A stretch of 64,000 nt of DNA. It comes from Chloroflexota bacterium. Lineage in GTDB: Bacteria; Chloroflexota; UBA11872; VXOZ01. Made by a program: the position numbers and the translations under genes. This document shows positions 1,079-49,068 of the stretch, piece by piece (position 1 is the stretch's first letter; every line of letters starts with the position of its first letter). Location of the stretch: NCBI GenBank assembly GCA_026710945.1, contig JAPOQA010000059.1:21265-85264 (forward strand), written 5' to 3'. The notes below the pieces were generated by a model. That model was not told where the DNA came from. It made no database searches and saw nothing but the letters and a program-made list of their open reading frames with translations.

Positions 1079-2446
1079 CTACAGGCCGGCGACCTGGTGT
1101 GCCGCCCGCGCCAGGGCGTCAACGAAGCGATCAACCTCAACCTGTCCCATCGGCGTAGAGAGCGCCCCGAGGCCCTCTTTGGAGACGATAACACCGGCGT
1201 CCATGAGTCCGCGATGCAGTCCGCGCATACGGGCTTCGGTCTCAGGTCCTTTAGGAATGCTGCGGTAGTTGACGATTGGCTCATCCGTCGGCACGACGAT
1301 GATGAGCGATCCGGCGCCGCTGACCTGCCCCGGCACGCCTGCATCGGCAAAGACCGCATTGGCGCGGGTGCGCAAGTCATCGCCTAGTTCTTCCAGGCGT
1401 GTGTACGCATCCGGCGTGAGTTGGGAGAGAGCGGCATAACCGGCGATCGCGGAGAGCGGGTTGCCGCTGTACGTGCCGCCGGAGGCGAGCACGGGCGGCC
1501 CTGCCGTGGGATCCAGCAGCGACATAATCTCGGCGCTGCCGCCCACGGCGCCAATCGGCAGGCCGCCGCCGATGATCTTACCAAAGACCGTGAGATCTGG
1601 CTCGCCGCCAAAGCGGGCCGCGCCGCCTGCGTAGCTCACCCGAAAACTGATCACCTCGTCGGAAATGAGCACGATACCGTAGTCCCGCGTGATCTCGCGC
1701 AAGAACGTGAGAAAGTCATCCTGCGGCAACGGAAAGCCCGCCCGATTGCAAAGTGGATCATAAAGCAGCGCCGCGATATCGGACCCATGTTGTTCCAGCA
1801 GGCGTATCACGGATTCCCTGTCGTTGTAGGGCAGCGTCAGCACGTCGGACTCAACCGAGTCCGCCAGTCCGCCGCTGCTGGCCACGCTGTGGGGGGCGTC
1901 CGCGGGTCCCCATGTGTCCGGCTGAGAAGAGTAACTCACCTGTACGTAGTCGTAATAACCGTGGTAGAAGCCCTCGAACTTGGCGATGCGGCTGCGTCCC
2001 GTAAACGCCCGTGCCAGTTTGACCGCGAGCATTACGCCTTCAGTGCCGGAATTGGCAAAGCGGATCTTCTCTAAAGAGGGCACCCGTTCCACGAGCAGAC
2101 GGGCAAGCTCCAGTTCCGGCTCGGACGGTTCGGAATACGCAGAGCCGCGCTGCAGTTGGTGAAAGATTGCCAGGTTTATCACCGGATTGGCGTGGCCGTG
2201 AATCAGCGCGGTCATGTTGTTGAGGTAATCAACGCGCTCCACACCCTCCACGTCGGTCAGGTAGCAACCGTTCCCGCTTTGCGCATAGATGGGATACGGA
2301 TGATAGTAGTAGTGCAGCCGTGACGTGCCTCCCGGCATATAGCGGGACGACTCCTCAAATAGCTCAGCTGTCGCAGTGGTAGGGGGCGAACCTGCCTCCG
2401 GTTCAATCGCAACTCCCCCCTCGCTGTGCCGCTGGCCCATAACCAC
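1079..2446 (-). CDS. class-III PLP-dependent aminotransferase, glutamate-1-semialdehyde 2,1-aminomutase-like
   Basis: 455 aa. Matches the GSA-aminomutase/aminotransferase class III fold (GTYSGNP, FGKIIGGGLP lysine region). Exact N-terminus uncertain. Confidence 0.8.
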   Translation of the reverse strand: MVMGQRHSEGGVAIEPEAGSPPTTATAELFEESSRYMPGGTSRLHYYYHPYPIYAQSGNGCYLTDVEGVERVDYLNNMTALIHGHANPVINLAIFHQLQRGSAYSEPSEPELELARLLVERVPSLEKIRFANSGTEGVMLAVKLARAFTGRSRIAKFEGFYHGYYDYVQVSYSSQPDTWGPADAPHSVASSGGLADSVESDVLTLPYNDRESVIRLLEQHGSDIAALLYDPLCNRAGFPLPQDDFLTFLREITRDYGIVLISDEVISFRVSYAGGAARFGGEPDLTVFGKIIGGGLPIGAVGGSAEIMSLLDPTAGPPVLASGGTYSGNPLSAIAGYAALSQLTPDAYTRLEELGDDLRTRANAVFADAGVPGQVSGAGSLIIVVPTDEPIVNYRSIPKGPETEARMRGLHRGLMDAGVIVSKEGLGALSTPMGQVEVDRFVDALARAAHQVAGL

Positions 2447-2622
2447 CTCCTCATGCGTGCAAGTCCTCTTGGCGATAGTATACCCAATGTCGCGCGGTCG
2501 CAGCGGAACAGTGCACCAGGCGCGGAGAGCGTCAATGATTGCGTGCGGTCTCGATTCATCCTTCCTATATGCTAGAATTCCCCTACTGAACTCTGCGCTT
2601 TGGCTAAGGTTCTAGGGTACGC

Positions 2623-4134
2623 ATGCGCACGCCACACATACCTCGTTACGCGGATACGGTCGTCATCGGCGGCGGCACGGCGGGAGCCGCCGTGGCGGGA
2701 CTGCTTGCCGAACGCGGCGACCAGTCGGTGCTGCTCTTGGAAGCCGGTCCGGACTACGGTCACCAGAAAGAAGGCCGCTGGCCCAGCGACTTGCTGGACG
2801 GTCGCGTGCTTGCCAGCACCCACGATTGGTCCTTCACCAGTGCGGCAACTCACGGCCAGCCAAACCACGAGCTCCAGCGTGCCAAGGTGATCGGGGGCTG
2901 TTCAGCCCACAACGGCTGCATCGCCATCTGGGGCAGCCGTGCCGACTATGACGGCTGGGCCGCCGCAGGCAACGACGGTTGGTCGACAGCAGAGGTTATC
3001 CCCTATTTCGAGCGAGCGATGGCAAGGTTGAGCGTGCGCGAGTTTGCCCCGGAGGAAGTTACTCCCTTTCACGGCGCGTGCCTCGACGCGATGGTCGGGA
3101 GCGGCATCCCCAGAACCGCCAATCTGAATGACTTGGACGAAGACATCGGCGCGGCGATCGCGCCGATCAACATCAGAAACGGCGTCCGCTGGAGCACGGC
3201 GCTCGCCTATCTCGATCCGGTGCGGGACCTGGGCAACTTGACCATAGTGGGCGACGCGCTCGTCAAGAAGATTGGAGTTCGCGGTTCGCATGCAGTTTCG
3301 GTCGAGGTAGTTCACGCAGGCCAAGAGTCAACGGTCGAGGCCGGACGCATAATCCTGTGTGGGGGTGCCTACGGCTCGCCCGCCGTTCTGCTCCGTTCCG
3401 GCATCGGCCCGGGCGATGAGCTGACTGCGTTGGGGGTCCCAGTCCGCTTGGACTTGCCCGGTGTCGGCCGCAACCTGCACGATCACCCGGGCGCAATCAT
3501 GCTGCACCACGGCACAGATCTCTTCAATTCCCTCTCGACGGACTTTATCGCCGCCGGCAAGACGGTCTTCACGGAACAGAGCCTCGCCAAGGCGCGGAGC
3601 AGAAACTGCGGCGAGGCATTCGACCTGCACATTGCGCCCCTGACTCCGCCCTCTCCCGACAAGGACGGACGTTGGGAATGCGCTATGTACACCGCCCACA
3701 TGGCGCCGCAGTCCCGAGGCCGTCTGACACTCCGCGACCGCAGCCCTGAGAGCAGTCCGGTGATCGATACCGGTTACTTTACGGATCCCGGAGACCGCGA
3801 TCTTGCGGCACTGCTGGACGGCATCGCGCTGACCCGAGAAATCGCCCGCCAACCATCGTTTGCCGAGTTGATAGGTGAAGAACTGGAAGAAACAGCGAGT
3901 ATGGTTACCGCTGAGGATGTGCGCCGCAACGGATTGCACTACTACCATCCGGTCGGCACGTGCAAGATGGGCCCGGCTTCAGAACCTGAAGCGGTAGTCG
4001 ATGCAATGGGCAAAGTCCACGGCATAGAGGGTCTCCACGTCGTCGACGCCTCAATCATGCCTAACGTTCCCCGAGGGAACACCAACTTGCCCACGCTCAT
4101 GCTCGCGGAGCGGATAATTGCCGGAGTCGACTAG
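2623..4134 (+). CDS. GMC-family FAD-dependent oxidoreductase (choline dehydrogenase-like)
   Basis: N-terminal GGGTAGAAVAGLL FAD-binding Rossmann motif, typical GMC N- and C-terminal signature regions. 503 aa. Confidence 0.8.
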   Translation: MRTPHIPRYADTVVIGGGTAGAAVAGLLAERGDQSVLLLEAGPDYGHQKEGRWPSDLLDGRVLASTHDWSFTSAATHGQPNHELQRAKVIGGCSAHNGCIAIWGSRADYDGWAAAGNDGWSTAEVIPYFERAMARLSVREFAPEEVTPFHGACLDAMVGSGIPRTANLNDLDEDIGAAIAPINIRNGVRWSTALAYLDPVRDLGNLTIVGDALVKKIGVRGSHAVSVEVVHAGQESTVEAGRIILCGGAYGSPAVLLRSGIGPGDELTALGVPVRLDLPGVGRNLHDHPGAIMLHHGTDLFNSLSTDFIAAGKTVFTEQSLAKARSRNCGEAFDLHIAPLTPPSPDKDGRWECAMYTAHMAPQSRGRLTLRDRSPESSPVIDTGYFTDPGDRDLAALLDGIALTREIARQPSFAELIGEELEETASMVTAEDVRRNGLHYYHPVGTCKMGPASEPEAVVDAMGKVHGIEGLHVVDASIMPNVPRGNTNLPTLMLAERIIAGVD

Positions 4135-8555: not shown

Positions 8556-8831
8556 GTCTCTGTCCGGGGAGTGGGAACTTCCTCACAGCGGCGAGACTTG
8601 TGCGATGGTTTCCTTTAGGAAACGGCAATGCTCCAATTGCGTTTGCCAGGCGGCACCATGCACTCTGTTTACGAGCGGGCGTATTGGGAAGTCCTTCTCC
8701 TGCGTGCCTCACCTATGTGCCGCTCTTGTGGCATTCTGGGAGAATCCCGTGGCAACAGTCAGCCTACAAACAAAATTGCGTGGTGGCTCGGTATAATTGA
8801 GGTAGATGGTTTCACAAAGAAGCAATCACCA

Positions 8832-10508
8832 ATGAATGTCGGCATCTCAAAGAGGAGGCCTCTAGTGATTAGCCGGATACATCGTAGTATTACGGTTCTC
8901 TTAGCGACAGCGGCGCTCATGGTCGCGGTCTCGTGCAGTGTGCAAGTTGTTCAACCCCCACCCGATCCTGCAGAAGATCCTGCTGCATACACGCAGTACT
9001 TTGTGGAACAGGCGATTGCCCACTACGAGGCACACGGACTTGAGGCGACCGTTGCCCACTACAATACGCCCGAAAGCATTGACGGGGACTGGTACGTCTT
9101 CATTTTCGATGAGAGTGATGTCATGCTCGCCCATGCTGCCGTGCCAGCAAACGTGGGACTGCACGCCGACCAGATTTTGGGGCTGGGCGGCTATCCGGCG
9201 GGAGCGCAGGTAGCGGCAGCGGCCACTGAGGAAGGCGCGTGGACAGACTACACGTACATTAACCCCAATGCGAACGCGTTCCAGTCGAAGCATTCCTGGG
9301 TGGTACGGCACGACGGTCTGATCTTTGGTTCCGGTTGGTACGAAGACGGCGCGTCAAAGTCGAATCCGGCCGAGTACACGCAGGCTTTCGTAGAGCAGGC
9401 AGTCAGGCTATATGACGCGATTGGACTTGAAGACACAGTGGCGTACTACAACACACCCGAGAGCATCGATGGAGCGTGGTACGTCTTCATCGCCGACGAG
9501 AATGACATCATGATTGCGCATGCCGCCGTGCCGGCGAACGTTGGGCTACCCCCCGAGCAAATCCTAGGACCTGGCGGCTATCCGGCAGGAGCGCAGGTAG
9601 CAGCGGCAGCCACAATAGAGGGCGCGTGGACGGATTATACATACATCAATCCCTCTACCGGGGCATTCCAGTCGAAACATACGTGGGTGGTGCGGTACGA
9701 CGGATTGGTCTTTGGCTCCGGTTGGTACGAAGACGGCGCTTCCAAGTCTGATCCCGCGGCGTTCACACAGGCGTTTGTAGCGCAGTCGATTCGGCTCTAT
9801 GACGCCATTGGACGCGAGGCCACATTCGCTTACTACAACACCCTGGAGAGCGTCGACGACGATTGGTACGTCTTCATCATCGATGAGAATGAGAACACGG
9901 TTGTCCAGCCCACGCGTCCTGAAATCCGCGGCACTTCGCCCACGACCCGGGTTGACGTCCGTGGCAAAGCCTACGGCGCGGAGCTCATAGCCGCCACAGA
10001 GGACGGCGTCTGGGTGGACTACTATTTCCTGAACCCCTCTACCGGCTATGAGGAACAGAAGCATGCCTGGGTGGTGAAGCACGACGGCTTGATCTTCGGT
10101 TCCGGCTGGTACGAACGCGCCGAAGCGGAAGACGATGCGACGTATACGCAGTCCTTCGTGCACCGCGCAATCCAGCGCTACGATGCTCAGGGTCGTGAAG
10201 CCGCCCTTGAGTTCTTCAGTTCAGAGCAAAGCGTGCAGGGCCAGTGGTACGTCTTCGTCCTCGATGAGAACCAGGTGACCATTGCCCACCCCAATCCGGA
10301 ACACATCGGCCGCACGCGGGAGCAGCGCATCGATAGGCGGGACTACGACTACGGTGCAGAGTTCTTGACGGCCACCGAGGAAGGCAAGTGGGTTGATTAC
10401 GTATTTCTCGACTTGGAAACCAACCAGGAGAGGCTGAAGCATACTTGGTTGATCAAGCACGATGGGCTGTTCTTTGGTTCCGGCTGGTATGAGGATTTTG
10501 AGGAATAG
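8832..10508 (+). CDS. secreted/lipo-protein built from four tandem ~129-aa Cache-like (sCache_2-like) repeats
   Basis: Hydrophobic signal segment ending ...LMVAVSC (possible lipobox). Four consecutive repeats, each with YNTPESIDGxWYVFxxDE...IAHAAVPANVG...GAWTDYTYxNP...KHxWVVRHDGLIFGSGWYE, resembling extracytoplasmic Cache sensor domains. No transmembrane or output domain. Alternative GTG start at 8865 lies after an AAGAGGAGG ribosome-binding site. Confidence 0.5.
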   Translation: MNVGISKRRPLVISRIHRSITVLLATAALMVAVSCSVQVVQPPPDPAEDPAAYTQYFVEQAIAHYEAHGLEATVAHYNTPESIDGDWYVFIFDESDVMLAHAAVPANVGLHADQILGLGGYPAGAQVAAAATEEGAWTDYTYINPNANAFQSKHSWVVRHDGLIFGSGWYEDGASKSNPAEYTQAFVEQAVRLYDAIGLEDTVAYYNTPESIDGAWYVFIADENDIMIAHAAVPANVGLPPEQILGPGGYPAGAQVAAAATIEGAWTDYTYINPSTGAFQSKHTWVVRYDGLVFGSGWYEDGASKSDPAAFTQAFVAQSIRLYDAIGREATFAYYNTLESVDDDWYVFIIDENENTVVQPTRPEIRGTSPTTRVDVRGKAYGAELIAATEDGVWVDYYFLNPSTGYEEQKHAWVVKHDGLIFGSGWYERAEAEDDATYTQSFVHRAIQRYDAQGREAALEFFSSEQSVQGQWYVFVLDENQVTIAHPNPEHIGRTREQRIDRRDYDYGAEFLTATEEGKWVDYVFLDLETNQERLKHTWLIKHDGLFFGSGWYEDFEE

Positions 10509-11061: not shown

Positions 11062-12339
11062 ATGGCCAATGGACTACAAGCCGGAGTCGGGCGCGCGACG
11101 ATTACGCCACCGCTAGGTACGTGGCTGTGTGGGTTCGGCAACCGCGAACACGGGTGCGATGCCATTCTCGACGATCTCTACGCTACGACGCTCGTGCTCG
11201 CGAATGACGAAATTACCATCGCTATTGTAAGCTGTGACGTCTGCGGGATACCGTCACAGCAAGTTGCCGCACTGCGCGCTTTGATTGCGGAGCGCACCGA
11301 CATCCCCGCTGCCCATGTGTTGGTCAACACCTCACATACGCACTCCGGCCCGTTCACGAGCATTCATGACGACATGTCGGACCACGAACGGGCGTATTCC
11401 ACGAATCTGGTCCACGCCATTGCCGGTTCGGTCGAAATGGCGCAAAGCAGTCTTGAGGCGTGCCGGATAACCCACAGCGCCGGCAGCGTGGCCGTGAACG
11501 TCAATCGCCGCCAAACGCACACTGGCGGTAGCATGGTACTCGGCGAAAACGCGCGCGGCGCGCTGGATACCACCGTGCAACTCTTGCGCATTGACACGGA
11601 TGACGGCGAGCCGCTGGCCGCGATGGTGCACTATGCGTGTCATCCCGTGGTGCTCTTTCCGCCCAGCCATGCCGTCTCCGCCGATTTCGTGGGCGTCGCC
11701 CGCGGCCTCTTCGAAGCGGCGAGTGGGGCGACCATGCTCTTCCTCCAGGGAGCGTGCGGTAACATCAACCCAATCGGCCAACGCAGTGAGATGGACATGC
11801 AAGAACGCCTCTGGGGCGTGGGCAGCGCTCTGGGCGCGGAAGCCCTGAAGGTCTATTCGCTCAGTGGCCTGCGCTCAGCCTTTGGGGAAGCCACGCCGCT
11901 TGAACCCGAGCTTGGGGCCGCGCACGAAACGCTAGCGCTCGAATTGCTGCCGCCGGGTGAACCACCACCCACGTTTCGGACGCGCACACCCGCGCTCCGC
12001 TACTGGACGCCGCCGCTGGTTGGCGAGAACCAGGTGGCGTTTGAAGTGCAGGCGCTCCGCATCGGCGACGTGGCCTTGGTTGGCGGCGCCGGTGAGGTCT
12101 TCATCGAGCTTGCGCACGCCGTGCAGGAACGCTCTCCCTTTGCGCATACCATGTACCTTGGCTATGCCAACGGCGATATCGGCTATATTCCCACTGCCAC
12201 CGCCTACGCCGAGGGCGGCTACGAGGTCGATATCGCCCACTTCCACTACAGTCTCCCCGCCGCGGTCGCGCCAAATAGCGCCGGCAGGGTCGTGGACGCC
12301 AGTGTGGCACTCTTGGAAACTCTGATGAAGTCCAGATAA
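11062..12339 (+). CDS. neutral/alkaline ceramidase-family N-terminal domain protein
   Basis: ATG at 11062 follows an AAAGGGG ribosome-binding site. N-terminus (GVGRATITPPLGTWLCGFGNREHGC...HDDLYATTLVLAN) resembles the neutral ceramidase N-terminal domain. Confidence 0.5.
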   Translation: MANGLQAGVGRATITPPLGTWLCGFGNREHGCDAILDDLYATTLVLANDEITIAIVSCDVCGIPSQQVAALRALIAERTDIPAAHVLVNTSHTHSGPFTSIHDDMSDHERAYSTNLVHAIAGSVEMAQSSLEACRITHSAGSVAVNVNRRQTHTGGSMVLGENARGALDTTVQLLRIDTDDGEPLAAMVHYACHPVVLFPPSHAVSADFVGVARGLFEAASGATMLFLQGACGNINPIGQRSEMDMQERLWGVGSALGAEALKVYSLSGLRSAFGEATPLEPELGAAHETLALELLPPGEPPPTFRTRTPALRYWTPPLVGENQVAFEVQALRIGDVALVGGAGEVFIELAHAVQERSPFAHTMYLGYANGDIGYIPTATAYAEGGYEVDIAHFHYSLPAAVAPNSAGRVVDASVALLETLMKSR

Positions 12340-12449
12340 CGCAAAAAATGCGGTCAAGTCTCAGCCCAAAATCGAAGTGGCAGGACGCTAGCTCAGAAGC
12401 AGATTCTGCCATAATTGAGAGACAAGGCTACGCTGCGAGGAGTCCAGAC

Positions 12450-13559
12450 ATGTTCACATCGCTTTCCATCCGCAATTTCCGTTGTTTCGATACGCTCTCA
12501 ATCGACAACTCCCTAGATCGGGTCAATTTGATAGCGGGATTGAATAGCGCCGGCAAGACTGCGCTTCTTGAGGCAATCTACTTGCTAATTGGTATGGGAA
12601 ATGCCGCATTGATTCAGCGTTTGAGTGTTTTTCGCAATGTAACTGATAGCTTCTCGGGAGGCCCCCAGCAGTTTAGCGAAATCTTTTGGGACCCGCTCTT
12701 CTACAATCTCGACTCTTCGAAGGACATCGAAATCAAAGGACTACATTCTGAAGGCCAGCATGTTGTGCGGCTTTCCATTGACCGTTCGCGCACGAAGCAG
12801 GTATCAGTTCTCTTAGGGGGAGGGAAGGGAGATAGTGATGGACTGGACCCGGTACCAATAGAGGGCGACGTCCTCAATAGCGATGCTCTCATTTATGAGC
12901 ACACCAAACCAGATCAATTGACCATAAAGACTCAGTCAATGCTTGCGGAAAGAGACGGTTCGGTGACTAGTATCCATGTTTCACCAACTTCACCGGAACC
13001 CATTGGAGGCTCCTTTTACGCTGCGAACCAATCAGGAGGACCGCAAGAAGATGCTGCACGATACACAAGGCTTGAAAGTGGAAGAGAGCCAATTGACTTG
13101 CTTGATAGTCTGAGAATAATGGAGCCTCGTCTTGAGCGATTGCGGGTTGGTGTAGTGGCCGGCACGCCGATGCTGCGTGGTGACATAGGCATTGGTCGTA
13201 TGGCCCCGCTCTCACTTCTCGGTGAAGGTTTGGTTAGGCTTACAGGCATTCTTCTTTCTGTAGCCGACGCACCAGGGGGCGTGGTCTTGATCGATGAGAT
13301 CGAGAACGGATTCCATCACTCCGTGCTTAGCCGAGTATGGGCGGCGATTGGCGAGGCGGCGCGCCGCTATGATACGCAAGTATTCGCTACGACTCACAGT
13401 TTCGAATGTATAGAAGCCGCGCACGAGGCGTTTCGCGAGGACCGGCAGTATGCCTTCCGGCTGCATCGCTTGGAACGCATCGCAGGCGAGTCCCACGTGA
13501 TTACATACGACCAAGAGACGCTTGCGGCCGCCGTTCGCTCTAACTTGGAGGTACGCTAG
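12450..13559 (+). CDS. AAA_21/ABC-type ATPase (OLD/AbiL/PARIS-AriA-like ATPase component)
   Basis: ATG at 12450 follows a GAGGAG ribosome-binding site. Walker A GLNSAGKT near the N-terminus; VVLIDEIENGFH (Walker B/D-loop) and ATTHS (H-loop) near the C-terminus. Lower-GC islet. Stop overlaps the next gene start (TAGTG). Confidence 0.7.
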   Translation: MFTSLSIRNFRCFDTLSIDNSLDRVNLIAGLNSAGKTALLEAIYLLIGMGNAALIQRLSVFRNVTDSFSGGPQQFSEIFWDPLFYNLDSSKDIEIKGLHSEGQHVVRLSIDRSRTKQVSVLLGGGKGDSDGLDPVPIEGDVLNSDALIYEHTKPDQLTIKTQSMLAERDGSVTSIHVSPTSPEPIGGSFYAANQSGGPQEDAARYTRLESGREPIDLLDSLRIMEPRLERLRVGVVAGTPMLRGDIGIGRMAPLSLLGEGLVRLTGILLSVADAPGGVVLIDEIENGFHHSVLSRVWAAIGEAARRYDTQVFATTHSFECIEAAHEAFREDRQYAFRLHRLERIAGESHVITYDQETLAAAVRSNLEVR

Positions 13560-14368
13560 TGCCGCCGAGAAGCGGGGTACGAGCGTCAATCCAACTCCTC
13601 GTCGAGGGTGCAGACGCGCAATACTTCTTCATGCATTTCCTCAATCACATGGGCTTCAACAACGTAGAGGTGCAAGGAGAAGTGGAGTGGCGCGGTCACT
13701 CCAGAGTCTACAAAGATGCGCCTGACTTGATTAAGGGTTTGGGCCTGAGAAGCAAATTCGATGAGGATGATCTCGCAGCCTTTGACCGTATTCGGAACGA
13801 AATATTGGAACGGCTTGACCCTAGCGACGCAGAAATTAGCAACTTCGGCGGCGTCACTGAGTTGCACAGCTTTCTTGGGGCCGTTTGGAACTCGCCTCGT
13901 GCGCGAACCACAATAGAGGCCATCGGCATCGTCCGTGACGCTGAGTCAAATGCGCGCGGCACTGAATCCGCTGCGGAGGCAGCCTTCAAGAGTGCACACG
14001 CTGCTATCAGTGCATCAGGGTTGACTCCTCCTGATCGTCCGCTGCAGGTTATTGGCAAGAAACCCAGGATTGGTGTCCTCATTCTGCCGCCAGGAGAATC
14101 TGAAGGCATGCTCGAAGACGTATGTCTTGACGCCGTGCAGGCTGATCCGGCTATGTCATGTGTTGATGAATACATCGAGTGTGTCAAGAGAAGTGTGCGG
14201 AACTGGCGGGGCCAAAACCGAAAGAAAGCCAGCGTCCAAGCCTTTCTCGCCTCAAGGCCCGAACCCGGCTTGAAGCTCGGTGAAGGGGCGAAACTTGGCT
14301 ACTGGAATTGGAGCCACGAGGTGTACAGCCCAATCAAGCAATTCATAGAGAACCTGATCGGCCAATAG
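13559..14368 (+). CDS. DUF4276-like protein (predicted TOPRIM-like/OLD-like nuclease partner of the ATPase)
   Basis: GTG start overlaps the ATPase stop by 1 nt (translational coupling). N-terminal LLVEGADAQYFFMHFLNHMG fits the remembered LVEGxTE...F...L..HL signature of DUF4276 proteins that accompany AAA_15/21 ATPases. Same lower-GC islet. Confidence 0.5.
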   Translation: MPPRSGVRASIQLLVEGADAQYFFMHFLNHMGFNNVEVQGEVEWRGHSRVYKDAPDLIKGLGLRSKFDEDDLAAFDRIRNEILERLDPSDAEISNFGGVTELHSFLGAVWNSPRARTTIEAIGIVRDAESNARGTESAAEAAFKSAHAAISASGLTPPDRPLQVIGKKPRIGVLILPPGESEGMLEDVCLDAVQADPAMSCVDEYIECVKRSVRNWRGQNRKKASVQAFLASRPEPGLKLGEGAKLGYWNWSHEVYSPIKQFIENLIGQ

Positions 14369-14420
14369 CGTAAAGCAATCTTGTTGATTCTCACTGCATC
14401 CCCGACTTGGGAGTGTTTCT

Positions 14421-15248
14421 ATGTTCACTCTTGGAGTAATGACCGATGAAGTCTCGCAGGACCTGGCGCATGCCCTCGACGTGATCGAGGAGTTTGGCGT
14501 GCGCTCGGTCGAACTGCACAGCATTTGGGACAAGAACATCTGCGATCTGGACAGCCATGAGCTGACGCAAGTGCTGCGCATGGTGCGCCAGCGAGGTTTT
14601 GCCGTGTGCGATATCGCCTCGCTCTTCCTGCGGTGTCCCATCGACGACCTGGACGCCTACAACGAGCACATCAAGATACTGGAACGGTCGATTCAGATCG
14701 CGCCGCTCTTCGACTGTCAACTCGTGCGCTGCTTCTCGTTCTGGCGTGAAGATGATCTCGATGCGCACTGGGACACAATTCTCGAACGGTTGGAACTGCC
14801 GGTGCGCATGGCGGAGACGGCTGGCGTGACGCTGGCGTTCGAGAACGTGCGCTCGTGCAATATCGGCACCGGCGCGGAGACGACGCGCTTGATGGAAGAG
14901 ATAAACTCGCCGAACCTGCGCGTGATCTGGGACCCGGGCAATGCGTACGTGTCCGGCGAGGCGCGGCCCTACCCCGACGGCTACGAAGCGGTGAAGCCCT
15001 GGATCATCCACGTGCACGTGAAGGATGCGGTGCTCAGCCCCGCGGGCGAATCGGTGTGGAAGCCCATTGGTGCGGGCAAGGTAGACTACGCCGGTCAAAT
15101 GAAGGCGCTGGCGGACGACGGCTACGAGGGTGTGGTGTCCTTAGAGACCCACTACAAACCGGAAAACGGTACTGCCGAGCAGGGCAGCCGGGAGTCTTTT
15201 GCGGGACTGCAGGCAATCTTGGCGGCACAGGGGATCGTTCCTGACTAG
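14421..15248 (+). CDS. sugar phosphate isomerase/epimerase (xylose-isomerase-like TIM barrel) family protein
   Basis: 275 aa with the TIM-barrel AP-endonuclease-2/xylose-isomerase-like pattern (conserved E/H/D metal ligands spread across the length). Confidence 0.65.
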   Translation: MFTLGVMTDEVSQDLAHALDVIEEFGVRSVELHSIWDKNICDLDSHELTQVLRMVRQRGFAVCDIASLFLRCPIDDLDAYNEHIKILERSIQIAPLFDCQLVRCFSFWREDDLDAHWDTILERLELPVRMAETAGVTLAFENVRSCNIGTGAETTRLMEEINSPNLRVIWDPGNAYVSGEARPYPDGYEAVKPWIIHVHVKDAVLSPAGESVWKPIGAGKVDYAGQMKALADDGYEGVVSLETHYKPENGTAEQGSRESFAGLQAILAAQGIVPD

Positions 15249-15384: not shown

Positions 15385-15500
15385 GATTCCCCTCACCCTA
15401 ACCCTCTCCCCGAGGAGAGGGGACCGGAAGGGATGTCCTTTCGCGAATTGCGCCCTCGCTTTTTGCCGATAGGTCGTAGCGCGGGGGCTTGTCCCCCGCC
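15385..15500. repeat. dispersed palindromic repeats (CCCTCACCCTAACCCTCTCCCCGAGGAGAGGGG; GCGGGGGCTTGTCCCCCGC)
   Basis: Both hairpin motifs recur elsewhere (24850..24890, 40398..40423, 59482..59520, 59778..59795). Confidence 0.75.
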
Positions 15501-26956: not shown

Positions 26957-27221
26957 CCCACCCCATCCCCGAACACTCAATCGCCGAAATTGTGCCTCCC
27001 GCGCGCGTGAGACACGCACGCGTTCGCACACGGCTGCGGCCCTGCACAGCGCCTGCGCCGGCTATTGATACCTTTCCCAAGATCGACTTCCCTAATCGGA
27101 ATTTGGCGTAGATTTAGGGGATCGCGGCCCTAAAGACAACCAGATTCGGAACGTGTTTGGCAAGGTCTGATGATACTATGTAAATAAGGACCGAATGTGC
27201 CGCTACAAAGGAGTAGAACTC

Positions 27222-27836
27222 ATGAATAGGCGGGCATTGCTGATTGCAATTGGCTTGATCGTCGTCGTGGTTGGTGGCGCGGGGGCTTGGTGGCTCGGGT
27301 CGCCCTTGTTTATCAACACGGTTGTCGAAGAGGAACTCCCATTCGAGATCCCGACCGCCGCAGAAATGGATGAAATGTCGGAGGACGAGCGTGAGAAGGT
27401 AGCCGCAGACGTAATGGATGCGGCGGCCAAAATGCCGGATAAAGAGATGGAAGAAGATATGCCGGAGATGGCGAATGACGCCCAACCGGTGGTGGTTGCG
27501 GAGGGCCAGTTCCAAGATGCCGACGAATTCCATAAAGGTACCGGCACTGTGACGCTCTACCGCTTGGCGGACGGCACGCACCTGCTGCGGTTCGAGGACT
27601 TCCGCGTGACCAACGGCCCGCAACTGCATGTATTGCTGGCGAACCATGCCGACCCTGTCAATCGTGCCGACCTTGAGGAAGGATACATCGATCTGGGTGG
27701 GCTCAAAGGGAACGTAGGCAGCCAAAACTACGAGATTGCGGCTGACATTGCCATCGACCCCATTAACAGCATCGTGATCTATTGCAAGCCCTTCCATGTG
27801 GTCTTTTCCACGGCTGCGCTTAGCAGCGGAAGTTAG
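27222..27836 (+). CDS. secreted DM13-domain protein
   Basis: ATG at 27222 follows an AAAGGAG ribosome-binding site. N-terminal signal/transmembrane segment, acidic linker, C-terminal about 110 aa with a DM13-like pattern (GTVTLYRLADGTHLLRFEDFRVTNGPQLHVLL). Confidence 0.5.
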   Translation: MNRRALLIAIGLIVVVVGGAGAWWLGSPLFINTVVEEELPFEIPTAAEMDEMSEDEREKVAADVMDAAAKMPDKEMEEDMPEMANDAQPVVVAEGQFQDADEFHKGTGTVTLYRLADGTHLLRFEDFRVTNGPQLHVLLANHADPVNRADLEEGYIDLGGLKGNVGSQNYEIAADIAIDPINSIVIYCKPFHVVFSTAALSSGS

Positions 27837-27996
27837 CTTGAAGTCGAATTCCATAACGGACTAGAATGCCAAGTGAAGGCTGCCAAGCATGTAAGTAAAC
27901 GGGTATCCCTAGGGGTACCCGTTCTTCGTACTTGCTTTTCGCAGCGATATAGAGTACCAGTCCATTCCGGGTGACCATGGGTGAGGTAGTGACCAT

Positions 27997-30735
27997 ATGA
28001 CGGAACTGACCAACGAGCAACAACAGGTAATAGAGCATCCTGACGGGCTGCACGGTAAGGTGCTTGCTGTGGCTGGTTCCGGAAAGACTACGACCATGGC
28101 GTACCGCATTAAGCATTTGCTTCAAGAACACCAAGTAGCCTCACACCAAATCCAGGTGTTGATGTTCAACCGGTATGCACGTGAACAGTTTATCGAGAAG
28201 CTCACCGAGATTGGAGTGTCCGAAGGGCAGCAGCCTCCAGTCCAGACTTTCCATGGCTATTCGTATGGGGTGATAAATACTTTAGGATACCGTACTTGGA
28301 TTGGTGACTCCGAGGGGCTTGCCCATTTGGCTCTAAAAAAAGCCATCTCCCAGGTGTGCCGAACAAAGAGACTGGATGAGGACGAAATTGATGTTGCTGA
28401 GGCTGGGCTTGCGATTGGTCTGTGGAAGGGAACTTTGACCCCTCCGTCTCAAGCAGGTTACCACGGTGAAGGCGGTGACAATTACATAGCGGTGTACAAG
28501 GAGTATGAAGAGATTCGGCTAAGCGACAATGCCATTACGTACGATGACTTCGTTCCCTTAGCACTAAGCGCACTCGAAAAGGATAATCTGTCGCGGCAAT
28601 CGACATCAAATAAGCTGCGATACATAATCGTGGACGAATACCAAGACGTCAACTTTGGTCAACAGAAGCTAATTGAGTTCTTGGCCAGAGATGGAGCCGA
28701 CATAATGGTGGTAGGCGATGACGACCAGACGATCTATGAGTGGCGGGGAGCGCGCAGCGATTTCATACTTGGCGGATTCGAGAATGTATTTGATAACAAG
28801 CGGCATCGCGCCTATACACTGACTAACTCCTTCCGATTTGGCTATAGCATCGCGCAGTCAAGCTACAATGTAATCCTCCACAATGCGAGCCGCTACAACA
28901 AAGACTTGATTACCAATGATCCAGCAGACGACAGCAAGGTAACTCTCATTACTGATCGAGAGGATCAAGGAGAGAGTGCCAATCGACTACTAGCGGAAGA
29001 GATCGTTTCTCTGGTAAAAGACAAGGGAGTCGCTCCTTCTGAGATTCGGGTACTGGGCCGCACCTACTCCCAGCTAAACTCAATCTCCATGGAATTCTTG
29101 ACTAAGCAGATACCTTTCAAGGTGATTGGACGCGCTCCATTCTTGCAGGAAGGTGAGTGCCAAGCACTCCTCAATTACGTACGCCTCGGTGCAAGCATGA
29201 ATGAGGTCCTCAATTCTGCCGCTAGTCAACAGTTTCTAGGTGTCGCCAACAAGCCTAGGCGGTTTCTCTTGCGAAGAGATGTAGAACGAATGCTGAATTC
29301 TGGACAACAAAGAGAAATGAGTCTAGGAGATTTGCTTTGGGAGACGATACAGGACAAATCGCAGTTCTCTCGAGGTACCGCCAAAGAGAACCTAGAAGAC
29401 CTGACATCGATTCTGGAAGACATTCACCGCCGATTACATAGAGACGGTAAGCTCGCCCCGGCCAGTCAAATACTTGAGTGGATAGACAAAGAAGTGGGGT
29501 TTCGACAACATTACTCGGACTATTACGGCCATGATGTAGAGGCACTTTCACGCATGGAGACAGTGAAGGCATTCATTTCCTATGCAAAGTGGATTGAATT
29601 GGATTGGATTCAGTTCATTGGTCATGTGGACAATACCGATACAACCCTAGGCCGACCCGATCACGAATGCATCAAGATGTCGACTATCCACAGCGTCAAG
29701 GGGCTAGAGTTCAAATACGTCATTATTCCCGATTGTAAGGAAAGGCACTTGCCTGTGATAGGCAAGAATGACAATCCAACTTACCACAGGGATGATCCAA
29801 AACGTACGCCGAAGCCATCGGAATGGCTTGAAAACGAGCGGCGATTGTTCTATGTCGCGGCAACACGGGCGAGCAGCGAGATATTCATTGGTGCTCCTGC
29901 ACTGTTGGGAAAAAGTGAAAAGAATCCAGAAGAAGGGCAGGACGATCGACCGAAGTCCTCACGGTTCTTGGAAGAGATGGAACTGGATCCGACTCAGGCA
30001 GTGGCAGCCGAGTTGGTGCGAGCGGCCCGAGGCGACCGCAACAATAAGCTAACGGAAGTCTGCCAACGTTTTTCAGGCTACCATCATATTGTTACACCAC
30101 TGAAGACACTTTATTTGCAAAAACTACCTACGTGGGTCCAAGAACCGCTGCAAAGTGTCAAGACTACAGTGGCACGGGTGTTTGGATACAAACAGGAGTA
30201 CGACGATCCCATTGAGCGCACCCGATTAAGGCCCAAGCTGCCGGAAGGCGCAGGCGGCACAGCGGCCGACATGGGAGAAGAACAAGCAAGCGTGACGTTT
30301 GAAGAAGGTGTGCGCGGGTTGCTTGGCCGCGATATATCGGCGGCTGAGTTGCGCGTGGCACGATTGCTGGCGAATCAACAGGATGGTGCCTATTATGTAG
30401 ACGGCGAGAAAGCCGTGCGTTTTGAGGGCGACCGCGTGCCGTATGCGATTGGTCAGGATGTTGCTGCGGAAATACTGCGGCGGCAGGAGCATATTGATGC
30501 TGGCATCCGTCAGGGTGAGCAGGCAACAGGCGAGCTGACGGGCGATCAGTTGGCGTTTGCGCGATATGGTGCCCAGCGCATTGCGATCAACGAGTTGAAG
30601 GAAACGGATGCCGAGTTGGTGGCCTTGGGCGCAAGGGCGGCGGCTCGTGCGGCGAGGACGTGGAAGTTGGCTCCGCCGTACCATATCGAGCGGATATCGC
30701 GGCATGTAGCGCGTACTGACCAACCAAGAAGGTGA
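27997..30735 (+). CDS. UvrD/Rep/PcrA-family SF1A DNA helicase with about 260-aa C-terminal extension of unknown function
   Basis: Walker A AGSGKTT, DEYQD (motif II), GDDDQTIYEWRGA (III), TNSFRFG (IV), STIHSVKGLEF (V), YVAATRA (VI). First about 2 kb of the gene is about 48-50% GC; the last about 550 bp returns to backbone GC. Confidence 0.8.
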   Translation: MTELTNEQQQVIEHPDGLHGKVLAVAGSGKTTTMAYRIKHLLQEHQVASHQIQVLMFNRYAREQFIEKLTEIGVSEGQQPPVQTFHGYSYGVINTLGYRTWIGDSEGLAHLALKKAISQVCRTKRLDEDEIDVAEAGLAIGLWKGTLTPPSQAGYHGEGGDNYIAVYKEYEEIRLSDNAITYDDFVPLALSALEKDNLSRQSTSNKLRYIIVDEYQDVNFGQQKLIEFLARDGADIMVVGDDDQTIYEWRGARSDFILGGFENVFDNKRHRAYTLTNSFRFGYSIAQSSYNVILHNASRYNKDLITNDPADDSKVTLITDREDQGESANRLLAEEIVSLVKDKGVAPSEIRVLGRTYSQLNSISMEFLTKQIPFKVIGRAPFLQEGECQALLNYVRLGASMNEVLNSAASQQFLGVANKPRRFLLRRDVERMLNSGQQREMSLGDLLWETIQDKSQFSRGTAKENLEDLTSILEDIHRRLHRDGKLAPASQILEWIDKEVGFRQHYSDYYGHDVEALSRMETVKAFISYAKWIELDWIQFIGHVDNTDTTLGRPDHECIKMSTIHSVKGLEFKYVIIPDCKERHLPVIGKNDNPTYHRDDPKRTPKPSEWLENERRLFYVAATRASSEIFIGAPALLGKSEKNPEEGQDDRPKSSRFLEEMELDPTQAVAAELVRAARGDRNNKLTEVCQRFSGYHHIVTPLKTLYLQKLPTWVQEPLQSVKTTVARVFGYKQEYDDPIERTRLRPKLPEGAGGTAADMGEEQASVTFEEGVRGLLGRDISAAELRVARLLANQQDGAYYVDGEKAVRFEGDRVPYAIGQDVAAEILRRQEHIDAGIRQGEQATGELTGDQLAFARYGAQRIAINELKETDAELVALGARAAARAARTWKLAPPYHIERISRHVARTDQPRR

Positions 30736-47892: not shown

Positions 47893-49068
47893 TTAGGGTC
47901 CTTTTATTGAATTCTCAATTCGAGAAACCTCAGCCCGGATTCTGTCCGCATGGCTGAAGAGATCGTCTAAGTCTGCCAAGCGAATTCGCTCCTCCGACCT
48001 GTTCTCGTCAAACAAAACGATTCTAAGGGTCGACGTTCTCAGGAGCAGTCTGCAAACGGTCTTTCGATTGTTGTCGTCAAGGAGCACACCACAATAGTAC
48101 TTCGTAGATCGGAGCCCTAGGCGTCGAACATCAACCACATCACGCAAGACAGCCTTGATTAAATTGAGAGCATCTACTTCAAGCGAGGTGTATTCCGGTT
48201 CATCTACTGAATCGGAAGCGGGTGGGACTTCTTCCTCCTGTAGCTTTTGGTCTTCCTGCTCTCCCTGTTTCAAGGCAGACTTCAAGCGATCGCTAATTCG
48301 ATCGTTTATGTATTGCCCAAACGCGTGTCGGACAAGAGGGCCAAATTGCTCTCGAATGGCCTGGGTTGCCAGACCTTCGTATACTCGCTTCACAACAAAG
48401 TAAACGAATTCATCGGACGGATTCTCAAGTTCACGGGAGATTAACCGCTTGATTTCTGTCGTATACTTCAGTTCCCTGGCAGCATCAATGATCTCATCTA
48501 AATTGAAGGCTGCTTTTGTGAATCGCTTTAGCTCCTCTACCTCCCCCTCGGTAAAGTCGAGCATATTGAACTCGAAGAAGGGCTTCTTGTCCATGACGTT
48601 GGGTTGGTCAAGGTCAGCGAAGAACCGATACACGACTCCATCAGTGAGAATGCCGAATCGGGCGTCAGTTACCGTGAAGTAGCGAATGAGTTGGGAAATC
48701 TCTGCTTCATCGAGGTTATTGCCGAATATCTTGCACTCAATTAGAATTGCGGGCTTGCCGTCTTGCATGAGGGCGTAGTCGACCTTTTCGCCCTTCTTCG
48801 AACCCACGTCTGCTGTGAATTCCGGTACAACCTCAGTTGGATCGAAGATTGAATAGCCCATCATCTGTAAGAACGGTAGAACGAGTGCGTTTTTGGTAGC
48901 CTCTTCGGTGTCAAGGTGATCGGTTCGCTCGGCAAACCTGCTTGAGCGTGTGCGTACTTCGTCGATGAAGTCCATGTATAGTGCGTCCTTGCTGATCGCC
49001 TCGTGATTTTTTGTACTTAACTTCGTTGTGACATAGAAGCAGAGAACCTCACGGACCCTTCTCTTCAA
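47893..49068 (-). CDS. HsdR-N-type restriction-endonuclease-like (PD-(D/E)xK) domain protein with about 200-aa C-terminal region of unknown function
   Basis: TEEATKNALVLPFLQMMGY...KVDYAL...AILIECK...ILTDGVVYRFF reproduces the type I R-subunit N-terminal nuclease-like domain (D...E-x-K). ORF-track start is TTG; a better start is ATG 48975 (AAGGA upstream). Region is about 50% GC. Confidence 0.55.
   Translation of the reverse strand: MKRRVREVLCFYVTTKLSTKNHEAISKDALYMDFIDEVRTRSSRFAERTDHLDTEEATKNALVLPFLQMMGYSIFDPTEVVPEFTADVGSKKGEKVDYALMQDGKPAILIECKIFGNNLDEAEISQLIRYFTVTDARFGILTDGVVYRFFADLDQPNVMDKKPFFEFNMLDFTEGEVEELKRFTKAAFNLDEIIDAARELKYTTEIKRLISRELENPSDEFVYFVVKRVYEGLATQAIREQFGPLVRHAFGQYINDRISDRLKSALKQGEQEDQKLQEEEVPPASDSVDEPEYTSLEVDALNLIKAVLRDVVDVRRLGLRSTKYYCGVLLDDNNRKTVCRLLLRTSTLRIVLFDENRSEERIRLADLDDLFSHADRIRAEVSRIENSIKGP

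Follow-up and report, generated by a model that had tools for sequence, protein, structure and literature searches.

An ABC ATPase and DUF3226 TOPRIM-like gene pair at a polymorphic chromosomal site in Chloroflexota, a probable two-gene conflict module

Modules that combine an ABC ATPase with a TOPRIM protein, such as OLD, Gabija, PARIS and AbiL, form a major theme in prokaryotic immunity, and a 2026 review left it open whether all such systems act like PARIS (PMC13064643). A translationally coupled gene pair of this general kind lies in a 64,000-nucleotide stretch of a Chloroflexota genome (the window), raising the question of which branch of these modules it belongs to, what it could do for its host and how it came to occupy its site. 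An earlier note on this DNA had read it as a low-GC islet encoding an AAA_21 ABC ATPase and a DUF4276/TOPRIM-like protein, and as a candidate defence module. Both open reading frames named there were found on the plus strand with their TAGTG overlap, and the motifs GLNSAGKT, VVLIDEIENGFH, ATTHS and LLVEGADAQYFFMHFLNHMG were all recovered. The features of the locus are as follows.

12318..14420, no strand: whole cassette, 2,103 bp, with both genes, both intergenic regions and the last seven codons of the ceramidase-like upstream gene
12405..12415, plus strand: invariant TCTGCCATAAT block, putative extended -10-like promoter element (TG-n-CATAAT), proposed from conservation only
12438..12442, plus strand: Shine-Dalgarno AGGAG, 7 nt 5' of the gene A start codon, invariant in 7/7 alleles
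12450..13559, plus strand: gene A, 369-aa SMC/Rad50-type ABC ATPase (AAA_21/AAA_15; PADLOC PDC-M38A / AbiLi-like)
12537..12560, plus strand: Walker A GLNSAGKT, residues 30-37, K36 invariant
12603..13049, plus strand: hypervariable insert of gene A, residues 52-200, delimited by allele identity, secondary structure and pLDDT
13281..13298, plus strand: Walker B VVLIDE, residues 278-283, D282 invariant, with H-loop H316 downstream
13547..13551, plus strand: internal Shine-Dalgarno GGAGG of gene B, 7 nt before its GTG, inside the codons of the conserved ATPase C-terminus L-E-V-R
13557..13561, plus strand: TAGTG stop/start overlap of 1 nt, translational coupling
13559..14368, plus strand: gene B, DUF3226 protein of 269 aa (OLD-like TOPRIM fold), putative effector with metal-dependent nuclease activity
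13682..13882, plus strand: helical insert of gene B, about 65 aa, residues about 42-108, from the alignment (helices 45-86)

The neighbours are of the types first assigned to them, a Ceramidase_alk-like gene upstream (1.1e-17, Pfam) and a sugar-phosphate-isomerase-type gene downstream, encoding an AP_endonuc_2/xylose-isomerase-like TIM barrel (2.7e-34). The start of gene A was placed at the ATG at 12450 rather than in the longer reading frame from 12348, since all homologues open with MFTSLSI and the invariant AGGAG precedes this codon by 7 nt. At the junction cgcTAGTGccg, the stop TAG (13557-13559) and the start GTG (13559-13561) have one base in common. The TCTGCCATAAT block is unchanged in all seven filled loci despite the diverged intergenic sequence around it, a conservation suggesting that it could act as an extended -10-like promoter element. 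Scans for sigma-70 and terminator consensus sequences gave counts not above those of shuffled sequence, and the block was missed by the former because it lacks a -35 match. An Rfam scan within 9-18 kb returned no family above its gathering score; a sub-threshold match to whalefall-1 was seen at 15389-15423.

Gene A carries the Walker A, Walker B and H-loop motifs and the ABC head fold that define an SMC/Rad50-type ABC ATPase, in agreement with the AAA_21/AAA_15 architecture assigned before. G30, K36 and T37 are invariant among 53 homologues from several phyla, as are the Walker B D282 and H316. Among the PADLOC-DB v2.0.0 HMMs, it matches PDC-M38A (1.8e-52, profile positions 1-383 of 383) and the AbiLi model PDLC02336 (5.4e-51, positions 1-340 of 340) over their full lengths, whereas the AriA HMMs match only segments and far more weakly (e.g. 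residues 225-319, E 4.6e-22). Variation within the protein is concentrated in one domain: across 16 Chloroflexota alleles, mean pairwise identity is 48% for residues 52-200 against 83% for residues 1-51 and 80% for residues 201-369. At the nucleotide level, this insert retains 52-65% identity where the flanks retain 94-99%, so that its synonymous sites are saturated. Predictions (secondary structure and pLDDT) make it rich in beta-strands, residues 117-140 forming a disordered loop, and it may be a sensor or specificity domain. Since it consists mainly of beta-structure and not of a coiled coil, and since the equivalent insert serves dimerisation in OLD and GajA (PMC10568477), the hypervariability could also mean something other than trigger sensing.

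Gene B proved TOPRIM-like as anticipated, but its family had been misassigned. DUF4276 (PF14103) was tried and gave no match at E<=1, nor did any of 36 family members match it at E<=10, whereas DUF3226 (PF11536) is matched over nearly its whole length (96.6 bits against a cut-off of 27, E 2.4e-27, profile positions 3-207 of 208) and is matched by all 36 aligned homologues. DUF4435 found no match in B and only weakly matched two of the 36 members (E 0.039). B also matches PDC-M38B (PADLOC-DB HMM, 1.7e-10 and 1.2e-9, residues 117-261), while its short-form relatives match that model nearly full length (2e-9 to 2.4e-13); only the C-terminal 145 residues of B align because the Chloroflexota clade carries the additional helical insert of about 65 aa. 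This insert is specific to the clade, and most DUF3226 members are about 205 aa long and lack it (median 207 aa).

Searched by sequence against PDB chains, neither protein gave anything significant. In a fold comparison, the predicted structure of B has a TOPRIM fold similar to solved TOPRIM domains, and the characterised TOPRIM proteins nearest to it are the OLD nucleases that cut DNA. A TOPRIM domain is recognised by an invariant Glu after the first beta-strand, an invariant Gly after the second and DxD after the third (PMC6755086). In B, E16 comes after strand 11-15 and G98 after strand 91-95, with D127-A-E129 at the end of strand 121-128, and among 150 diverse representatives these residues are kept in 149 (E16), 140 (G98) and 150 (D127), with D or E at position 129 in 140. 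The OLD type has two further metal-B ligands, an acidic residue about four positions beyond that Glu and another Glu on the helix that comes first after beta-4, together with a Lys conserved in the helical region (PMC6755086). Judged by their position in the sequence, the candidates for these in B are D19 (D/E in 120/150) or position 20 (D/E in 114/150), E186 at the start of helix 185-192 (148/150) and K223 (147/150). Furthermore, B contains a strictly conserved Cys-x6-Cys pair and a third Cys (C189, C201 and C208).

The pairing of the two genes is obligate. A lies directly upstream of B in 76/76 loci with enough upstream sequence, with a 1-nt overlap (TGATG, TAATG or TAGTG) in 58 of them, a 4-nt overlap in seven and abutting ends in five. 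GGAG or GAGG occurs within the last 18 nt of gene A in 62 of the 76, the C-terminus xEVR being conserved, and the operon arrangement also holds in unrelated genomes, bearing out the translational coupling proposed before.

The pair is indeed similar to OLD, PARIS and AbiL, as had been suggested, and is likewise experimentally uncharacterised: in the literature library searched, no paper mentions DUF3226 or PDC-M38. This type of pair is already catalogued as the PADLOC candidate PDC-M38, which has the same gene order and adjacency and whose two HMMs are matched by A and B; the likeness is one of HMM match, and PDC-M38 is an unvalidated, bioinformatic candidate. In PARIS, proposed as a 'class 4' OLD that comprises the ABC ATPase AriA and the DUF4435 TOPRIM protein AriB, AriA is described as both infection sensor and antitoxin, and AriB as the effector that cleaves tRNA-Lys (PMC11464382; PMC13064643). 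The cassette differs in that B is a DUF3226 protein, in that A has 369 aa against 53-55 kDa for AriA (PMC11464382), and in that A has a beta-rich insert where AriA has coiled-coil and trigger-binding domains. In AbiL of Lactococcus (AbiLi and AbiLii), an ABC ATPase likewise precedes a TOPRIM protein that is predicted to be OLD-like (PMC13064643), and A covers the full length of the AbiLi model, but B matches neither AbiLii nor RloB of RloAB (PF13707, Pfam E<=1), and AriB is also absent from its PADLOC matches. OLD classes 1-3 (P2 Old, TsOLD, GajA and the retron Eco8 effector) are single fused polypeptides, whereas two open reading frames parted by a stop codon are present here in all alleles and in every one of the 76 loci. 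Unlike a retron, the pair has no reverse transcriptase or ncRNA next to it, and unlike Gabija, it adjoins no GajB-like UvrD/PcrA/Rep helicase, its neighbours being the ceramidase-like and TIM-barrel genes. A UvrD-type gene elsewhere in the window (27997..30735) was considered as a GajB-like partner and rejected, as it lies 13.6 kb away and no GajA is present. The structural-genomics protein PH0156 of Pyrococcus horikoshii (PDB 2p62) is also among the nearest known counterparts; B had no sequence match to it in the PDB search. ATPase and DUF4276 pairs, for their part, belong to the MADS3-4 system (Burman et al. 2024; PMC11464382, Fig. 6c). The NCBIfam MAD3 model scored 44 bits on A against a 420-bit cut-off, and no NCBIfam model reached its cut-off for either protein.

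At its chromosomal site, the cassette is accessory and its alleles are mosaic. Among 14 related Chloroflexota species representatives, four carry it and the site is empty in ten; in the closest genome of the latter kind (L008), 72 bp stand in place of the 2,103 bp, and homology with the window breaks at 12318 and resumes at 14421, with 94% nucleotide identity on both sides. Systematic differences separate the filled haplotypes from the empty ones at the 3' end of the upstream gene and in the stretch preceding the downstream one, and the two states are interleaved in the flank tree. Between some alleles, the flanks are 97-98% identical and yet the ATPase is only about 66% identical. The reverse is seen between the window and a second filled genome (L009), where gene B is 93-98% identical and the flanks 77-87%, and between L009 and a third (L004), where gene A is 90-93% identical and the flanks 78-85%. 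The earlier note had set conserved synteny against accessory status; the site is indeed always the same, even between lineages with a difference of about 20% in the flanking proteins, but the pair is missing from ten of the species and its alleles have been exchanged between lineages, and it is therefore accessory. No integrase or transposase gene occurs within about 4 kb on either side, as reported before, the window holds no tRNA gene, and a search of the cassette ends for terminal inverted repeats, target-site duplications and other mobile-element scars returned only short repeats at chance level. Homologous recombination, using the conserved flanks and the likewise conserved A-3'/B-5' core, appears to insert, remove and reshuffle the cassette, which has no mobile-element genes of its own. 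The locus exemplifies the turnover of a defence-like cassette by recombination between core genes without an integrase, and its alleles form a natural series at a single chromosomal position, in which the fast diversification of residues 52-200 of the ATPase offers a ready hypothesis for specificity.

Taken together, our analysis suggests that the cassette is probably a two-gene conflict module, most likely directed against phages, with a split OLD-like architecture and a PARIS-like mode of action. A and B would be produced from their own promoter by translational coupling, presumably at a fixed stoichiometry. A could oligomerise and keep B inactive, by analogy with AriA/AriB of PARIS and with OLD and Gabija, until its hypervariable, beta-rich insert senses a cue derived from the invader, a step that may involve ATP binding or hydrolysis. 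Once freed or activated, B might cut nucleic acid at a two-metal site formed by Glu, DxD(E) and Glu, and such cutting would halt the infection or the infected cell. The TOPRIM domains of OLD and GajA cut DNA by two-metal catalysis (PMC6755086; PMC10568477). Mobile or defence-type company speaks for this reading: besides the plasmids described below, the pair occurs downstream of P2-like tail genes in Plesiomonas, and an IMG/VR contig has it at a distance of about 2 kb from AbiEii. Other observations count against it. Most sampled contexts of the pair are housekeeping neighbourhoods rather than defence islands, and two different B queries found no homologue among 50,697 phage genomes; PARIS is often carried by phage satellites. 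A DNA-level search of E. coli genomes gave no match.

A broader reading, possible but rather doubtful, is that ATPase and DUF3226 pairs constitute a distinct and widespread class of split OLD-like immune systems, with specificity set by a swappable insert, a Cys-regulated effector unlike AriB, and spread by recombination only. The regulation of B might then involve, for example, a metal or redox site, and the spread would amount to 'allele replacement' at fixed sites between core genes.

The pair could instead be a selfish addiction module of the toxin-antitoxin kind, in which the nuclease B would be the toxin, countered by A as antitoxin, and which would persist by killing cells that lose it or by stabilising its replicon, with no dedicated anti-phage role. 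Plasmid carriage lends this some weight, since the pair is the sole cargo of a 4,071-bp ColE1-type plasmid of Klebsiella pneumoniae (NZ_CP070094.1) and adjoins BrnT/BrnA on Acinetobacter plasmids; so does its proximity to PIN or PemK genes in two metagenomic contexts, and PARIS itself behaves as a type II toxin-antitoxin pair (PMC13064643). Against it, the ten related species that have cleanly lost or never had the cassette indicate that loss is tolerated, and the diversification of A in one domain, together with allele exchange, fits antagonistic coevolution with an external partner rather than simple addiction. We consider addiction alone unlikely, and the two roles are not mutually exclusive and could coexist.

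An activity against plasmids or other DNA elements, whether Wadjet-like or OLD-like on DNA ends, seems less probable still. A would here sense the topology or the ends of foreign DNA, which its TOPRIM partner would cut; but with 369 aa and no long coiled coil, A makes loop extrusion of the Wadjet type implausible, and the module itself rides on small plasmids.

There is very little to commend the islet of the earlier note, a recently acquired low-GC segment with an ATPase and DUF4276 pair. The composition does point that way in part, as does the accessory nature of the pair: gene A has 52.3% GC, gene B 54.7% and the cassette 53.1%, against 61-63% in the flanking genes and 59.0% on average in the window, although the value of about 49% quoted for both genes applies only to the 5' two-thirds of gene A (49.7%). 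The window has three low-GC segments, and the cassette, one of them, lies within the lowest 5% of equal-length windows (z = -1.96); the contrast is stronger at third codon positions, with 53% and 60% in the two genes against 72-79% in the flanks. GC3 is low in every allele, though, and the filled genomes do not share a nearly identical cassette; the family, moreover, is DUF3226, DUF4276 being unmatched. The constant site argues against a one-off recent acquisition and, with the low GC3 of all alleles and the allele exchange, points to a long-standing polymorphic locus rather than a single recent insertion.

RecF/RecR also joins an SMC-like ATPase to a Cys-containing TOPRIM protein, but a housekeeping repair or recombination role after RecF/RecR or SbcCD, already disfavoured, is the least credible of these readings, and the RecF/RecR type was rejected.

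Whichever function the pair serves, the DUF3226 branch to which it belongs is large, with at least 6,181 clusters at 50% identity, and obligately paired, and the 4-kb Klebsiella plasmid bearing only the pair offers a direct way to test the family in an enterobacterial host. In public annotation, the two genes carry no more than the labels 'AAA family ATPase' and 'DUF3226 domain-containing protein'.

Genes A (ABC ATPase) and B (DUF3226 TOPRIM) were both found as open reading frames on the forward strand at the positions given by the earlier note, and every motif that it had quoted is present in the encoded proteins.

Features of the gene pair and its flanks
Upstream flank: Ceramidase_alk-like gene (match 1.1e-17)
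12450..13559, + strand: gene A, ORF of 369 aa counted from the ATG at 12450
13547-13551: GGAGG, internal Shine-Dalgarno for gene B, within codons of the A C-terminus
13559..14368, + strand: gene B, ORF of 269 aa with a GTG start
Downstream flank: AP_endonuc_2/xylose-isomerase-like TIM-barrel gene (match 2.7e-34)

The genes meet at cgcTAGTGccg, where one base is common to the stop of A and the start of B. On the 5′ side of gene A, the TCTGCCATAAT block (TG-n-CATAAT, extended -10-like) and an AGGAG are invariant and were both kept while the remaining intergenic DNA diverged, which favours the ATG at 12450 as the true start of A. The sequence also suggests that the cassette, namely the pair with its adjoining intergenic DNA, carries its own promoter, in which TCTGCCATAAT would be the putative promoter element.

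The DUF3226 profile retrieved 83 metagenomic and viral loci, 76 of which had enough upstream sequence, and an A homologue lies directly upstream of B on the same strand in all 76. The genes overlap by 1 nt (TGATG, TAATG or TAGTG) at 58 of these loci and by 4 nt at seven, and abut at five; in 62/76, the codons for the conserved xEVR C-terminus of the ATPase contain GGAG or GAGG. These shared junctions and internal Shine-Dalgarno sequences indicate that translational coupling is a family trait. An exhaustive profile search gave 6,181 cluster representatives for DUF3226 (E<=1e-3), of which 1,384 reach E<=1e-30, with a median length of 207 aa among the 150 best.

Protein B is a full-length match to DUF3226 (PF11536; 2.4e-27) and not, as previously assigned, to DUF4276, which matched neither B at E<=1 nor any of 36 family members. 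PF20469 OLD-like_TOPRIM was matched by 12 of these 36 (best 3.3e-5) and DUF4435, weakly, by two. The description of B as TOPRIM-like holds, since the three motifs that define TOPRIM (PMC6755086) occupy the structural positions expected of them and hardly vary across 150 diverse representatives.

Conserved residues of B among 150 representatives
E16, after beta-1: TOPRIM motif, 149/150
G98, after beta-2: TOPRIM motif, 140/150
D127-x-D/E129, after beta-3: TOPRIM motif, 150/150 and 140/150
C189, window 14123-14125: conserved cysteine, 138/150
C201 and C208 (Cys-x6-Cys), window 14159-14161 and 14180-14182: conserved cysteines, 150/150

E186 on the next helix (148/150) and K223 (147/150) plausibly correspond to the metal-B glutamate and the catalytic lysine of OLD. 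The three cysteines could form a metal-binding or redox site beside the TOPRIM active-site helix; no such site has been described for OLD nucleases.

Protein A matched AAA_21 (9.5e-18) and AAA_15 (2.2e-16) in Pfam and, over its full length, the PADLOC models PDC-M38A (1.8e-52) and AbiLi (5.4e-51), whereas the AriA, GajA and PtuA models gave partial matches only. Its AlphaFold model is confident (pLDDT 86.3, pTM 0.86) and superposes on the ABC ATPase heads of SMC (18.2), Rad50 (17.8), PtuA (17.5), GajA (15.9), AriA (15.8; 20% identity) and TsOLD (14.5). Across 53 homologues spanning many phyla, the Walker A (K36), Walker B (D282) and H-loop (H316) residues never vary. The variable part comprises residues 52-200, with a mean pairwise identity of 48% against 83% and 80% in the two ATPase half-domains; it is the insert separating Walker A from the signature/Walker B half, and its predicted structure is beta-rich, with residues 117-140 as a disordered loop. 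One of the two most notable outcomes is the allelic series, which singles out a candidate specificity domain of A.

In this Chloroflexota MAG lineage, every relative that carries the pair has it between the same two genes, a constant site that argues against a one-off recent insertion; yet only 4 of 14 species-level representatives are filled and 10 are empty, so that the accessory status proposed earlier holds. On the flanking-gene tree, each of the three clades mixes filled and empty states. Compared with the closest empty genome (L008; flanks 94% identical in nucleotides), the cassette spans exactly 12318..14420 (2,103 bp), where that genome has 72 bp instead. Its left boundary lies 7 codons ahead of the upstream gene stop, which gives filled and empty haplotypes different C-termini. 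These last codons of the ceramidase-like gene (12318..12339, with equivalents in L004-L021) are part of the cassette haplotype, mostly ending ...LMKSR/G* at filled sites and ...LHES*, ...LYES* and similar at empty ones, and cassette gain or loss thus rewrites the C-terminus of a core protein.

The cassette alleles are strikingly divergent and mosaic. Between the window and the related locus L004, flanking proteins are 97-98% identical, A 67% and B 86%; between L001 and L007, the flanks are again 97-98% identical, and A and B both 66%. At nucleotide level, the window and L004 are 94-99% identical in the flanks but 52-65% across the first two-thirds of gene A; identity returns to 85-99% from the 3′ end of A into the 5′ part of B, and drops again to 63% at the 3′ end of B. 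Gene B is closer between the window and L009 (93-98%) than the flanks (77-87%), as is gene A between L004 and L009 (90-93% versus 78-85%), which indicates exchange between lineages. As the earlier note held, no integrase or transposase accompanies the cassette in the window sequence, nor do terminal repeats, target duplications or tRNA genes; the turnover would therefore most simply be read as homologous recombination acting via the flanks and the conserved core. That a fixed site in the core genome turns over with no mobile-element genes is the other most notable outcome. The C-terminal ~60 residues of B (~14185..14368 plus downstream intergenic DNA) fall into two or more allelic types (KLG-YWNW and DRG-DWNW) that segregate independently of the A insert type; one 3′-end type is common to the window, L009 and L014 (96-98% nucleotide identity), and others are 59-63% identical.

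The low-GC islet of ~49% described earlier is real as a contrast but overstated in depth: gene A has 52.3% GC, gene B 54.7% and the cassette 53.1%, against a window mean of 59.0% and 61-63% in the flanking genes, and 49.7% is reached only in the 5′ two-thirds of gene A. The cassette (z = -1.96) falls in the lowest 5% of equal-length stretches, and the window has two further low-GC segments. GC at third codon positions contrasts more clearly (53% in A and 60% in B versus 72-79% in the flanks), and is low in all alleles.

By HMM, the pair belongs to the PADLOC candidate PDC-M38. It falls outside several named families: A and B are unfused, unlike the fused domains of OLD classes 1-3; no helicase accompanies them as in Gabija; B is not the DUF4435 effector of PARIS; A resembles AbiLi, yet B is no RloB/AbiLii protein as in AbiL; and A scores 44 bits against the MAD3 cut-off of 420 bits for MADS. 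Burman et al. listed TOPRIM-Old, DUF4435, RloB and DUF4276, and not DUF3226, as partners of AAA15/21 defence ATPases (PMC11464382). Taken together, these results place the pair in a branch that is already catalogued but uncharacterised, of the well-known ATPase + TOPRIM kind; a literature search found no experimental test of any ATPase + DUF3226 family member.

The best-supported reading, by analogy with PARIS, OLD and GajA (PMC6755086; PMC10568477 for OLD/GajA), is a split OLD-like defence module, in which A would act as sensor and regulator and B as a metal-dependent nuclease effector. In PARIS, infection sensing and an antitoxin role have been ascribed to the ABC ATPase AriA, and tRNA-Lys is cut by the TOPRIM effector AriB (PMC11464382; PMC13064643). 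The results themselves reach as far as domain identity, intact motifs, coupling and evolutionary behaviour; anything more about how A and B work is inferred. The pair might alternatively be an addiction module or an anti-plasmid system; the presence/absence polymorphism and the diversity of alleles are inconsistent with a repair pair.

Most distant members stand alone as a two-gene insertion amid housekeeping genes. On a 4,071-bp ColE1-type Klebsiella pneumoniae plasmid (NZ_CP070094.1), the pair is the only cargo besides replication-control genes; its DUF3226 gene crosses the record origin (~3420-4071 joined to 1-173, - strand) and is absent from the PLSDB gene table, which lists the ATPase alone as 'ATP-binding protein'. 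Five Acinetobacter plasmids carry the pair, which adjoins BrnT/BrnA in one. In Acinetobacter haemolyticus pAHTJR2 (2014..3175), the ATPase 5′ of DUF3226 is annotated in two fragments (2014-2703 and 2891-3175) and is probably a frameshifted or decaying copy. In Plesiomonas shigelloides (NZ_CP027853.1, 241.4-254.0 kb), the pair lies ~3.3 kb downstream of P2-like late genes (phage tail protein, tail protein X, gpD/VgrG-like), a position resembling the variable defence hotspots described for P2-like prophages (PMC9122126). On an IMG/VR contig it is ~2 kb from AbiEii, and no homologue was found among 50,697 phage genomes. In a metagenomic variant (L002, 4385..6278), the downstream TIM-barrel gene is broken into 169- and 78-aa fragments, followed by a gene with HTH_23/HTH_38/HTH_32 domains, which are characteristic of the N-termini of IS630-type transposases; an IS seems to have inserted beside the cassette.

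Elsewhere in the window, the lowest-GC stretch (27114..30735, ~49% over 2 kb) contains a 246-aa ORF on the - strand (213 aa if read on the + strand) that matches nothing in Pfam or PADLOC, then a 912-aa UvrD-type helicase matching PADLOC GajB-type models (2.6e-54) with no adjacent GajA-like gene, and may be a further accessory or defence-related insertion. The third low-GC segment (~50% GC) contains a gene (47893..49068, - strand) for a protein of 391 aa, which carries a restriction-endonuclease-like HSDR_N / HSDR_N_2 domain and has no PADLOC match. A sub-threshold Rfam whalefall-1 sRNA match (15389..15423, - strand; 25 bits against a gathering score of 37, E 0.0047), between the TIM-barrel and aminotransferase genes, is probably due to chance. 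The gene upstream of the ceramidase-like gene (8628..10508) encodes 626 aa with repeated Cache-type sensor modules (sCache_2 / dCache_2), and the length of this protein varies among relatives, being 418-547 aa in L001, L004 and L007.
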